A stretch of 64,000 nt of DNA, from positions 608,153 to 672,152 of the forward strand of contig MU004231.1 in NCBI GenBank assembly GCA_010405405.1, given 5' to 3'. Numbering within the stretch: position 1 is the first letter of the stretch; every line of letters starts with the position of its first letter. This document shows positions 60,332 to 63,535 of this stretch, piece after piece. The notes under the pieces were generated by a model. The model was not told the DNA's origin. It worked only from the letters and a program-made list of their open reading frames with translations, and did no database searches. The translations under genes and the position numbers were made by a program. The DNA is from Microthyrium microscopicum (lineage: Eukaryota).

Positions 60332-61760
60332 TCAATTGGGTGTCGAACGACACCCGCGGTCCTTCGGGTGACACTTGTGTGGCGGAGGTGGTGGCCCTCT
60401 TAGGGTAGTGTACTCTATTGTTCCAGGCAGAGCGCTCACAGTGTCGGCCACCGAACGACGATCGAGAGCCCAACCGCGCCCAGTATGCAAAATGTCAACT
60501 GTAGACTTCGAACGACGATGGAGAGCCCAACCGCGCCCAGTATGCAAAATGTCAACTGTAGACTTCGAGAGAGCGGGGACGTTCTTGTCGCTCTCAGTAG
60601 CGTCTTGTGATCCACGTGTCACTTGGTGAGTGCTATCCTGGTGGATCCGATCGGATTTCTCAGCTTTATCAGAACTGTCACGCTTCTAGAAAGATTAGTA
60701 TGCATTGATCAATACGACATTGTGACTACAACATACTATCGGTAGTGCCCAAAAGTCCATAAGGAATTCTCGTTCAACGCCTTCGGAACGCTTCAGCGAA
60801 TTCCGTCCCCAAGGCATCCCGAATGAAACATCGGTAGTACGGCGTGCGATTTTTGCAGCGTCTCTTGAACGACGCGTGAGCTGGTTAGTGTTGCGTTGGT
60901 CCGTCCGACCGGATTTCTCAAGTTCGTCGGAGCCGTCGCTTTTCTAGAAGGATTAGTTCCCGTTGATTAGAATGAAATTGTCATCAACATACTACCCCCC
61001 AGCGTTCCGGTGCAAAACTTTGGTCAACGCCCTCAGAGCGCTTGAGCGGGTGAGTGTTGCCTTGGTCTTTTTGATCGGATTTCTCAATTTTGTTGGGGCT
61101 GTCGCTTTTCTAGAAGGATTAGTTTCCGTTAATCAGGATAACATTGTCATCAACATACTACCCCCCAACGTTCCGGTGCGAAACTTTGGTCAACGCCGTC
61201 AGAGCGCTTGAGCGGGTGAGTGTTGCCTTGGTCTTTTTGATCGGATTTCTCAAATCTGTTGGGGCTGTCGCTTTTCTAGATGGATTAGTTTCCGTTGATC
61301 AAGATAATATTGTCATCAACATACTACCCCCCAACGTTCCGGTGCGAAACTTTGGTCAACGCCCTCGGAGCGCTTGAGCGAAGGCCATCTCCAAGGCGAC
61401 CCAAATGAGACGTCGACAGATCGGCGTTCGACCTTATTAAGCCTCGTTTTGGCATTTTTGAACCATATCCAAGGCTCCCCTAATGAGGCATCGGTAGTGG
61501 GAGGTTTAGTTTCTCCGGCACTCGATTTGGTTCTTTCGGCAATCCTTGGCCAAGCACAAGCGTGATAACGATCTTAAGATTTATCCGGTTAGTTGATCTG
61601 ATGACTGATGTATGCTTGGACTGTTGGACCTACCACCGGCTTTGGGCAGACCAAAAGCTGTAGTGTCCTTCTCAGTGAGTCCAGTCTTAGCCCTACAATC
61701 TATAGTAGGGAGAGCAACGGCAACAGACGTCCAGACAGATAGGAGAAATTGGGTCCTCAT
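60332..61760 (-). CDS. Secreted Kex2-processed repeat protein, candidate RiPP precursor (about 389 aa; exons 61760-61634, 61572-61325, 61275-61159, 61109-60993, 60943-60737, 60685-60332)
   Basis: Signal peptide MRTQFLLSVWTSVAVA-LP. Five GT-AG introns with CTAAC/CTAAT branch sites splice into one stop-free 1170-nt frame with 10 KR/RR sites and repeated Trp-containing segments. Confidence 0.85.
60452..60568. repeat. 57-bp tandem duplication within the last precursor exon
   Basis: Two near-identical copies encoding SKSTVDILHTGRGWAL[H/D]RR on the minus strand. Confidence 0.9.
60885..61380. repeat. 166-bp tandem repeat (117-nt exon + 49-nt intron unit), about 3 copies
   Basis: GGGTGAGTGTTGCC recurs at a 166-bp period; each unit contains a minus-strand GTATGT...CTAAT...CTAG intron. 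Confidence 0.9.
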
Positions 61761-62433
61761 TTTGAGTAGATTGGAATTTCTCTTGCAGGTTTAGGAATAT
61801 GGCTCTGGGACGAATTGTTCAACTGAATGGTCTTAGGAATACGATGTTTTATAGTACTTTCCACCCGTCCAGTCATGAGAATGTCTCTTAAGTTTGCTTT
61901 AACACTATCGTACAAGACTTTCGTCTCTAACGTGAAGCCATTCGCCGTTACAACTTCTGTAACATCCAAGTTAGTGCTACACTCATGGATAGTTACGATG
62001 ACATGTTACTCTAGTGTTTTGTTTGTATTACCATGACCAGTTTGTAAACTTTTCACTAAAATCGTCAAATGTGCTTAGCATTTGACATTTCGTTGGTGAC
62101 CCAGCCAAGACATGTTATGGTGTGACAGTCCAGAATCACCTTGTTGGATGTGAACTCCAAATCGAAACATGACTTCTATTTGGTCGAATTAAGTGAAGTG
62201 GGTCTCAATGGTGGTCGGCTAGTTAGCATGGAACCAGTCCTTTTGATGAAGTGAAGGTGGGTTACATAGCACCGTAATACCTAGATGGCCCCCAAAGTAA
62301 AAGAAAAAAGTATAAAAGTGAATTGTACCAACGATGATATTTGTGCAAGGGGGAGCATCACTTGCTGAGGAGTCTCATGACAACTTGTTAATGGAAGCAA
62401 ACCGAGCAAAGGATTTGGTAGTACTATCACGCA

Positions 62434-62501
62434 TAAACTTTACTTATTCTATTAGAGAACTCTCTACGCTAAACTTTACTTGTTCTATCAGAGAACTCTC
62501 T
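62434..62501. repeat. 36-bp-period tandem duplication just upstream of the DUF3328 gene
   Basis: TAAACTTTACTT[A/G]TTCTAT[T/C]AGAGAACTCTCT at 62434 and 62470. Confidence 0.75.
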
Positions 62502-62542
62502 GTGTTCTCCAGCTTCCACTTGGCTTTCCATCGTTTCCAAAC

Positions 62543-63535
62543 ATGGCAGAGCACAAACAATATCTTTTGTCTCGATCAGATCAAGGATCTGCCGAATATG
62601 AGAGAATCCCTCTGACTGATACCCAAGGTTCATCACGAGCACGATGGCAAAAAGGATGCAATGCTAAGCGCCGAGGAATATGGCAAAATCTCTGCTTCAT
62701 CGGTTCTCTGATCTGGCTTCTCGGCTGTTTATTGCTACTCATGAGTATGATAACCTGGATAAGAACTGGACAGAGCCAATGCAAGCCTTATTCGATATAC
62801 TGTAAGTTTAGCAAAACGGTTCGAAAACTTAAGATCTTTAACGTGTTGACTTTATTCGCAGCTCCGGCTCAGGGTGTAATCAAATACCACAACTATACTT
62901 TCACCACTGGCTTCTCCCCCGAGCGTTCCAAGTGGCAAGGACCTCCATCTCCCTCTGTTGATGAGGAGTGGGTGGCTCTCTATAGTACGCATGACACCCA
63001 AGGGCCCCCATACGCATCAAGAACTGACATGGTTTAGACTTTGGAATAAGCAGAGTGACAGCCGACGAAGCTGCCCAGTTCTATAACAAGACCTCAGAAA
63101 TTCCCGGTGATCCCGGCCACTACATTACCGATCTAGACGTCTTTCACCAACTGCATTGTCTCAATGCGGTGCGAAAGCTCATCTGGCCGGAATACTACCA
63201 CACCCTTGACAATCTCGTTGGTAAAACCCGCACGAAGAGCCAAGAGCATCTCGGTAAGTACAGAGTTCCACCAGTATTAGAATATATTTACTAAAATGTC
63301 GCCAGACCACTGCATTGACTCTCTTCGACAATCTCTCATGTGCAGTGCGGATGTCACTCCACTCTACTGGGTATGGAGTCCGAAGAGAAATTTGACCCTA
63401 CCGGAAGCTAGGGTAACGCACACATGTCGAGATTTTGAGGCTATTCGTCAGTGGGCATTGGAGCGACAGATGGTGGTGCCTTTCAATAGCAGTGTTCATA
63501 TGCCAGGTTCCCCTGTGGTTTTCCACGGATCCTGA
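62543..63535 (+). CDS. DUF3328 / UstYa-like oxidase (introns 62802-62861, 62985-63037, 63254-63305)
   Basis: N-terminal TM anchor, Y|SPA, WQGPPSPSVDEEW, LDVFHQLHCLN, EHL|DHCIDSLRQSLMCSADVT, HTCRDFEAIRQWA; two HxxHC motifs. Confidence 0.93.

Follow-up and report, generated by a model that had tools for sequence, protein, structure and literature searches.

A tryptophan-core repeat precursor head to head with a UstYa/DUF3328 gene in Microthyrium microscopicum: a candidate two-gene dikaritin-type peptide locus

The gene pair and its annotation

The DNA analysed here, called the window throughout, is a stretch of 64,000 nucleotides (nt) from contig MU004231.1 of the leaf-litter fungus Microthyrium microscopicum. 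Close to its right end, two genes lie head to head: one on the minus strand encodes a repeat protein of 389 amino acids (aa) with a predicted signal peptide and repeated cores between dibasic sites, and one on the plus strand encodes a UstYa-like (DUF3328) protein with two HxxHC motifs. We describe the two genes and weigh their reading as a candidate pair for a peptide made on the ribosome and modified after translation (RiPP), of the dikaritin type. The features of the precursor gene are as follows.

60332..61760, minus strand: precursor gene from ATG to stop, six-exon spliced model, 389 aa
61760-61634, 61572-61325, 61275-61159, 61109-60993, 60943-60737 and 60685-60332, minus strand: precursor exons of the spliced model
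61713..61760, minus strand: predicted signal peptide, residues 1-16 (MRTQFLLSVWTSVAVA, then LP), from a hydropathy heuristic
61633-61573, minus strand: intron 1, 61 nt, GTAGGT..ACTAAC..AAG, phase 1
61276..61324, minus strand: intron 2, 49 nt, GTATGT..ACTAAT..CTAG, phase 0
61158-61110 and 60992-60944, minus strand: introns 3 and 4, 49 nt each, repeat copies of intron 2, phase 0
60736-60686, minus strand: intron 5, 51 nt, GTATGT..ACTAAT..CTAG, phase 0

The precursor frame is open from the ATG at 61760 to the stop at 60332 only once the five short introns are removed; the splice signals of all five predicted introns are intact, and the joined exons form a 1170-nt frame of 389 aa. A repeat intron left in the transcript would close the frame after ...WGVVC. 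An earlier note on this DNA had spliced the repeats at 60.4-61.4 kb into a minus-strand protein of that length, and the rebuilt model agrees with it and is letter-for-letter identical to the NCBI hypothetical protein BT63DRAFT_466275 (P0001) of Microthyrium microscopicum, which is also present in UniRef. The six-exon structure was thus reached independently by the depositor's annotation pipeline, and the remark in the earlier note that automated annotation could easily miss this gene proved mistaken. The N-terminus has the shape of the signal peptide that had been proposed, judged by the same heuristic (M-R, a 15-residue hydrophobic stretch and A-V-A, an A-x-A motif, before L17, with a hydropathy maximum of 1.77 over residues 6-20). 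No Pfam family matched the precursor at threshold. Its protein-atlas model is disordered (mean predicted local distance difference test score, pLDDT, 0.34), and the atlas structure matches obtained with it (template modelling scores of 0.22-0.40) were discarded as meaningless for that reason.

The divergent neighbour and the region between the two genes comprise the following features.

62543..63535, plus strand: UstYa/DUF3328 gene, four-exon model, 275 aa
62543-62801, 62862-62984, 63038-63253 and 63306-63535, plus strand: UstYa exons of the spliced model
61761..62542, no strand: divergent intergenic (promoter) region of 782 bp, shared by precursor and UstYa
62429..62501, plus strand: 36-bp direct repeat, two copies with 91% matches (Tandem Repeats Finder), in the shared promoter or 5' untranslated region (UTR)

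In the UstYa product, an N-terminal tail is followed by a single hydrophobic helix at about residues 50-72 (hydropathy maximum 2.65 at residues 56-70) and then by HQLHC(x29)HLDHC, in which HQLHC stands at residue 164 and HLDHC at residue 198, the second motif being split by intron 3. The PF11807 hidden Markov model, which the earlier note had named as the means of verifying the family, matched exons 2, 3 and 4 (E 2.3e-6, 9.4e-13 and 2.6e-19, respectively) at collinear profile positions (52-88, 94-152 and 168-220), and the deposited partial UstYa protein P0002 scored 180 bits against the same profile. When the 275-aa model was compared with 11 homologues of 248-276 aa, it aligned with them end to end, and the exon 1/2 junction SIYS-PA corresponded to a contiguous xxYS-PA in the homologues. 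In this alignment both HxxHC motifs are conserved, which bears out the claim that they are intact, and so are the LRQSLMCSAD and THTCRDF cysteines and the hydrophobic helix near the N-terminus. The deposited P0002 is a 176-aa partial protein that begins inside intron 1 and is devoid of exon 1, the transmembrane exon, and of the last 13 residues; it is the UstYa gene, not the precursor, that is under-annotated in NCBI (176 aa against the full 275 aa). A PDB sequence search with the UstYa protein returned no relative (best E 0.52). The two start codons, at 61760 and 62543, leave 782 bp between them, matching the head-to-head distance of about 780 bp reported before, and the 36-bp direct repeat stops 42 bp short of the UstYa ATG.

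Repeats, dibasic sites and cores of the precursor

Two tandem repeats were called with Tandem Repeats Finder within the precursor gene.

60873..61380, minus strand: 166-bp tandem array, 3.1 copies, 90% matches, score 813
60452..60568, minus strand: 57-bp tandem duplication, 2.1 copies, 98% matches, encoding two copies of SKSTVDILHTGRGWAL[HD]RR

Each 166-bp unit is a 117-nt exon together with its own 49-nt phase-0 intron. The exon encodes a 24-aa spacer ending in KR and a 15-aa core, S[ED]GVDQSFAPERWGV, and the intron is placed exactly between core and spacer. Units A and B differ at 6 of 49 intron bases, all interior, so that the GTATGT, ACTAAT and CTAG signals are unchanged between these young copies; 3 of 45 core bases differ (two synonymous, one exchanging D and E), as do 2 of 72 spacer bases. 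Older internal paralogues were compared on samples that are all small. The spacers of exons 3 and 6 differ at a proportion of 0.90 of synonymous sites (pS, saturated) and 0.25 of non-synonymous sites (pN), and the class A module, which holds the first core, has a synonymous distance (dS) of 0.53 and a non-synonymous distance (dN) of 0.20 between exons 2 and 5, whereas the second core diverged fast (dN 0.89, dS 0.44). The constraint among these paralogues is evidence that the precursor frame is coding.

The precursor holds 10 [KR]R sites, reproducing the earlier count, and the peptides quoted with it were exact. Cutting at the dibasic sites gives two Trp-bearing pieces of the type SVDVSFGSPWRWPSL / TTDVSFGMPWGRNSL, three pieces in which S[ED]GVDQSFAPERWGV is joined to a polar spacer of 22-24 residues, one diverged copy of the latter core (SEGVEREFLMDFWALPI) and two pieces SKSTVDILHTGRGWAL[HD], and one precursor carries three to four different core types. 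The repeat fragments 111-149, 150-188 and 189-228 measure 39, 39 and 40 aa, and related fragments besides these comprise two of 17 aa and two of 19 aa; the longest internal fragment delimited by dibasic sites is 56 aa. [KR]R is followed by S or T at 9 of the 10 sites, against 1.2 expected and with none of 10,000 shuffles reaching that number, the repeat copies not being independent of one another.

A signal peptide followed by KR-punctuated repeats is also the architecture of mating alpha-pheromone-type precursors, and the protein-atlas feature neighbours of the window precursor are pheromone-type Kex2 precursors ('Pheromone 1' at 0.83 and an MF_alpha cluster at 0.79), a weak lead that falls under the bar of 0.9. 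Membership of that family is contradicted on several counts: Pfam gave no MF_alpha or MF_alpha_N match at E up to 1, the precursor has three to four core types instead of one, and its KR sites are not followed by X-Ala or X-Pro dipeptides. Moreover, 98.6% of 216 pheromone precursors among the Kex2-processed repeat proteins (KEPs) of a fungal survey have no DUF3328 neighbour (PMC7329392; figures from this survey are taken, here and below, from the part of the paper available to us), whereas the window precursor has one directly adjacent. We regard a pheromone precursor as very improbable.

Known systems and UstYa-linked precursors

To count as a KEP in the survey, a protein needs a signal peptide and three or more tandem repeats, each 8 to 100 aa long, set off by dibasic sites (PMC7329392). 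The window precursor shows all of these, having an endoplasmic reticulum (ER) signal peptide on the hydropathy heuristic and, delimited by KR/KK/RK/RR sites, three or more repeats whose lengths stay within that range; it would be entered there as 'stand-alone', a KEP lacking homologues, with an adjacent DUF3328. It is absent from the survey as far as the available part goes, the data for which were downloaded on 9 October 2019, and neither the genus nor the locus tag nor the core occurs in the three supplementary files searched, which are possibly partial. Across 1,461 fungal genomes, DUF3328 is found no more than 15 genes away from 1,758 of 7,878 KEP genes. Of the DUF3328 counts as a whole, 31.8% fall within that distance of a KEP, and 2,560 KEPs lack homologues (PMC7329392). 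The DUF3328 counts peak at the gene adjacent to the KEP (PMC7329392), so an orphan KEP adjoining UstYa is common, and direct adjacency is unlikely to be due to chance. The same frequencies of KEP and DUF3328 pairs and of KEPs lacking homologues mean that the locus as such had been overrated as a novelty.

The mark by which a dikaritin cluster is known is DUF3328 beside a repeat precursor with kexin sites (PMC9632046; PMC12048977; PMC9769878, as far as the available parts of these papers go), the class-defining DUF3328/UstYa protein carries two HxxHC motifs, and later definitions drop the requirement for accessory genes (PMC12048977). At the window locus, the UstYa protein carries both motifs, and its divergent neighbour at 782 bp is a precursor with a predicted signal peptide in which kexin sites separate the repeated cores; the earlier assignment of the dikaritin-defining architecture, a predicted secreted dibasic-repeat precursor immediately adjoining DUF3328 with its two HxxHC motifs, is upheld. 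A KR/RR repeat precursor adjoining a two-HxxHC UstYa is what the pair has in common with the ustiloxin, phomopsin, asperipin-2a and victorin clusters, and a single UstYa gene is shared with the asperipin-2a pathway in the part of its description at hand. The window differs from the dikaritins in its Tyr-free cores, in having three to four core types and one intron per repeat, in a main repeat without a C-terminal dibasic site, and in that no tyrosinase, methyltransferase or peptidase gene of such clusters was found among the window open reading frames (ORFs) scanned. Tyr is the residue through which ustiloxin, asperipin-2a and phomopsin become cyclic (PMC7329392). The window cores contain none and resemble no characterised product class, in keeping with the claim that they match none of the dikaritin compounds named above. 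Tyr occurs in 65.6% of DUF3328-linked KEP repeats and is lacking from 34% (PMC7329392), so that it is typical rather than defining for the dikaritin type. Among the DUF3328-linked types of the survey, one (P-3) already has W and P in its core (PMC7329392).

The epichloecyclin system of Epichloe (gigA/gigB/gigC/kexB) is a further likeness, in which a precursor without Pfam match, made of 27-aa imperfect repeats, is accompanied by one DUF3328 protein needed for the cyclic products (PMC10540207, available part, as for the next two statements). The precursor and DUF3328 genes of that system are silent in Epichloe outside special conditions, that is, in planta. Its cores (e.g. INFKIPYT) hold a conserved Tyr, through which its authors speculate that cyclisation proceeds. 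In contrast, the window cores are based on Trp and Phe and have no sequence similarity to these, and neither a SET methyltransferase nor a dedicated kexin gene turned up at the window locus.

On the enzyme side, DUF3328 proteins are by now known to be dimeric, binuclear copper enzymes anchored in the membrane. CctR forms a homodimer of this kind, with its copper site at HxxHC(x)nHxxHC, and uses O2 and reducing equivalents; it hydroxylates a non-ribosomal peptide, ApnU is a halogenase, and of the three only AprY is described as a cyclase (PMC12435403, available part). The window UstYa resembles all three, as far as that part describes them, in its N-terminal tail, one transmembrane helix, lumenal HxxHC(x)nHxxHC domain and conserved C-terminal cysteines, and by sequence it displays the CctR-type architecture, with a single predicted helix after the tail, a motif spacing of n = 29 and the C-terminal cysteines.

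If the two genes work together, the 389-aa pre-pro-protein would enter the ER through its signal peptide, kexin would cut after the 10 KR/RR sites in the Golgi, and the basic residues would be trimmed. This would release the 15-17-residue peptides SVDVSFGSPWRWPSL, TTDVSFGMPWGRNSL, SEGVEREFLMDFWALPI and SKSTVDILHTGRGWAL[HD], together with three pieces of 37-38 residues beginning S[ED]GVDQSFAPERWGV. The UstYa protein, predicted to cross the membrane once and to bear the HxxHC(x)nHxxHC motif (binuclear copper in CctR) in its lumenal domain, would then modify the cores oxidatively; a side-chain crosslink or a hydroxylation around the conserved aromatic-x(3-5)-Trp motif is the likeliest form of this. 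Such chemistry would not be the Tyr-based cyclisation described or proposed for the characterised products.

Relatives of P0002 were also sought in metagenomic DNA, where 218 stretches matched, 160 were confirmed and 80 loci were kept (28-58% identity), 45 of them at least 5 kb long; KEP-like neighbours were found by a simple ORF scan, which yields single-exon genes. Such a neighbour was present in 9 of the 80 loci, seven of them distinct (L016 duplicates L036, and L028 duplicates L029). In all seven distinct precursors (L003, L006, L011, L013, L028/L029, L036/L016 and L051), a Trp lies 1-2 residues before a basic site, in the contexts GESWF-KR, PAWWG-KKR, IVQWH-KR, AAGWG-KR, PRTWF-KR, SHGW-KR and RSAWS-KK, and W falls within the last three residues in 30 of 36 counted fragments. 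The L006 core (DSTIESFDNPAWWG) shares the pattern SF-x-x-P-x-W-W with the SF-x-x-P-x-W-W/G cores of the window, and the window UstYa falls in the same major clade as all seven Trp-precursor loci in a crude query-anchored tree that carries no support values. Like the window precursor, the metagenomic ones combine a signal peptide, KR-punctuated repeats and, apart from the L075/L080 precursor described below, Trp-centred cores with an adjacent relative of the window UstYa. They have no detectable homology to it, and their Trp stands 1-2 residues before the basic site, whereas in the window it is 4-6 residues away or precedes a single Lys. Trp as such occurs in 20.5% of DUF3328-linked KEP repeats and is not enriched over other KEPs (24.5%) (PMC7329392).

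Taken as sequence patterns, these results suggest that a Trp-directed subgroup of UstYa enzymes exists. A more far-reaching proposal, which we put forward only tentatively and think somewhat doubtful, is that the UstYa clade with Trp-centred precursors installs a Trp-based crosslink or oxidation new to fungal RiPPs, that the conserved 24-residue spacer may serve as the recognition sequence, and that the core-per-exon layout may allow gain, loss and skipping of cores by single exon-intron units. No description of a Trp-based UstY/DUF3328 peptide was found in the literature, most subscription papers being out of reach. Two further features of the metagenomic precursors may be recorded: four of the seven distinct ones also carry a Tyr 5-6 residues upstream of the Trp, and at L013:1416-4645 a Trp-core precursor (SESQSPDILYDNAAGWG, four copies) lies between UstYa genes on both sides.

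Another UstYa-linked precursor was noticed at L080:2521-3407 and L075:529-1416 (both minus strand), two copies of one locus, with a signal sequence beginning MHTTRVISAFVAFAVAAHALA. It contains seven EYNDNNAVEF units, 114-128 bp apart in changing frames, and in L080 six introns of 60-66 nt with canonical signals restore the frame, placing each unit on its own exon; a UstYa gene lies about 1.6 kb from the precursor, in divergent orientation to it. One intron per repeat and the divergent orientation are the features it shares with the window pair, and its Tyr/Phe core without Trp and a UstYa in the other major clade set it apart. One intron per repeat, as read from the sequence, is thus found a second time, in a precursor unrelated to that of the window. 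No description of such a KEP architecture was found in the literature, for which coverage was incomplete.

Weighing the pair, its surroundings and its meaning

Several observations weigh against an active pair that makes modified peptides. In sequence searches the precursor stands alone: the full-length search retrieved 1 of 6,709 candidates, which was the protein itself, exon 2 likewise retrieved only itself among 12 candidates, and phmmer with exon 6 against 1.84 billion representatives found itself and three unrelated repeat proteins. The latter (P0032-P0034) were rejected as relatives, having been matched through repeat composition. The precursor is thus an orphan in all three protein searches, and it matched nothing in the 80 metagenomic UstYa loci (best E 0.13); no orthologue that would speak for conservation of the gene pair was found. 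The raw number of dibasic sites is no evidence because the protein is so rich in Lys and Arg, shuffled sequences having 6.6 +/- 2.2 sites and 976 of 10,000 reaching 10. The nine Trp-bearing fragments between dibasic sites hold no Tyr, their cores centring on Trp. The three most repeated cores end before K-S instead of a dibasic site, so that kexin alone would leave pieces of 37-38 residues, and these repeats, in which Gly-Val-Lys-Ser comes after the Trp, would require an additional protease or else a long follower. The distance of 4-6 residues from Trp to the dibasic site is unlike the W-x-KR of the related loci, and the seven comparison loci may themselves come from related fungi. Among 23 ORFs of at least 110 aa at 39-60.3 kb, no tyrosinase, methyltransferase, protease or transporter was found as a tailoring gene, and the accessory genes of the 2015-16 dikaritin definition (tyrosinase, methyltransferase, several DUF3328 genes, transporter or peptidase) are absent from these ORFs; past the UstYa stop the window extends for 465 bp only. 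Lastly, no transcript was seen for either gene, the sole RNA run of the species being without cover at 59748-63485. That run does stem from this organism, its contigs being 100% alike and having GT..AG or CT..AC joints over the genes at 48.7-59.7 kb; the missing cover speaks neither for nor against expression or splicing.

The orphan status of the precursor would also fit a locus that is silent or decaying, in which a lineage-specific, recently expanded repeat gene is not made or has no function. The youth of the repeat array (90-98% identity) points the same way, as do the possibility that the deposited model is ab initio and the three main cores that lost, or never had, a C-terminal dibasic site. 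This account is at odds with the integrity of both genes, which show no frameshift or premature stop across their 10 exons, with the excess of synonymous over non-synonymous change between the older internal paralogues, and with the conserved catalytic motifs and cysteines of UstYa. Secondary-metabolite clusters, moreover, are usually silent in laboratory culture. We consider it quite unlikely that the locus is without function or product.

Another reading is an ordinary KEP, whose linear, unmodified peptides are secreted as signals or effectors while the UstYa acts elsewhere and is a neighbour by coincidence. In the survey, 78% of KEPs have no DUF3328 nearby (PMC7329392), many KEP peptides are linear (PMC7329392; PMC9769878), and DUF3328 enzymes also operate in non-ribosomal peptide and polyketide pathways (PMC12048977; PMC12435403), each as far as the available parts of these sources show; the absence of Tyr from the window cores and the atlas neighbourhood of pheromone-type precursors, below the bar as it is, would suit such a protein too. 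The divergent adjacency at 782 bp, however, is the very position at which DUF3328 counts peak around KEPs (PMC7329392), and relatives of this UstYa recurrently adjoin Trp-core repeat precursors, in 7 of 7 distinct cases. The ORFs scanned over the window's last 25 kb included no gene for a non-ribosomal peptide synthetase or polyketide synthase, and the precursor has no MF_alpha family match. On balance we think this explanation unlikely, and a minimal two-gene pair of the dikaritin type, with UstYa-dependent products, is probably what Microthyrium microscopicum carries at this locus.

The window holds no second UstYa gene and no second precursor. The ORFs upstream of the pair encode a carboxylesterase, a Ctr copper transporter, a ferric reductase, a DUF1993 protein, an M18 peptidase and a short-chain dehydrogenase, none of which is a usual tailoring gene. 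The divergent ferric/cupric reductase (minus strand; PF08022, PF08030) and Ctr copper transporter (plus strand; PF04145) lie at 52255-55600, about 4.8 kb from the 3' end of the precursor gene, and a spliced RNA contig covers both; copper-uptake genes near a copper-needing UstYa are curious and may well be a coincidence. Between them and the precursor, at 57100-59700 on the plus strand, is the carboxylesterase gene (PF00135), with five RNA-supported introns. The DUF1993 gene is at 51442-52017 on the minus strand (E 8.6e-47), and DUF1993 also figures in the conserved gene set of 'Clan R2', a group of lichen RiPP clusters (PMC12048977). On the other side of the pair, a low-depth RNA contig (2.3) at 63540-64000 on the minus strand has an intron at 63768-63832 (GTAGGT..TAG). 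As a further cluster gene this spliced RNA was rejected, there being no ORF for it within the window, and it is a UTR or a non-coding transcript convergent on the UstYa gene. Among the matches listed for literature on Microthyrium microscopicum, none was about peptides by its title.

The locus adds an uncharacterised and probably silent example to a known class of more than 1,000 computed cases. We see what is unusual mainly in the association of Trp cores with UstYa and in the exon-per-core structure rather than in the locus itself. One intron per repeat is a feature of at least two precursors that are unrelated to each other, and genome mining has more to gain from the wider pattern, in which W-x-KR precursors are recurrently found beside UstYa relatives, than from the single locus. 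If the pair is active, it would bring a Tyr-free, Trp-centred product into a class in which ustiloxin, asperipin-2a and phomopsin cyclise through Tyr, and it would offer a compact two-gene system for probing how a DUF3328 copper enzyme acts on Trp-containing cores.

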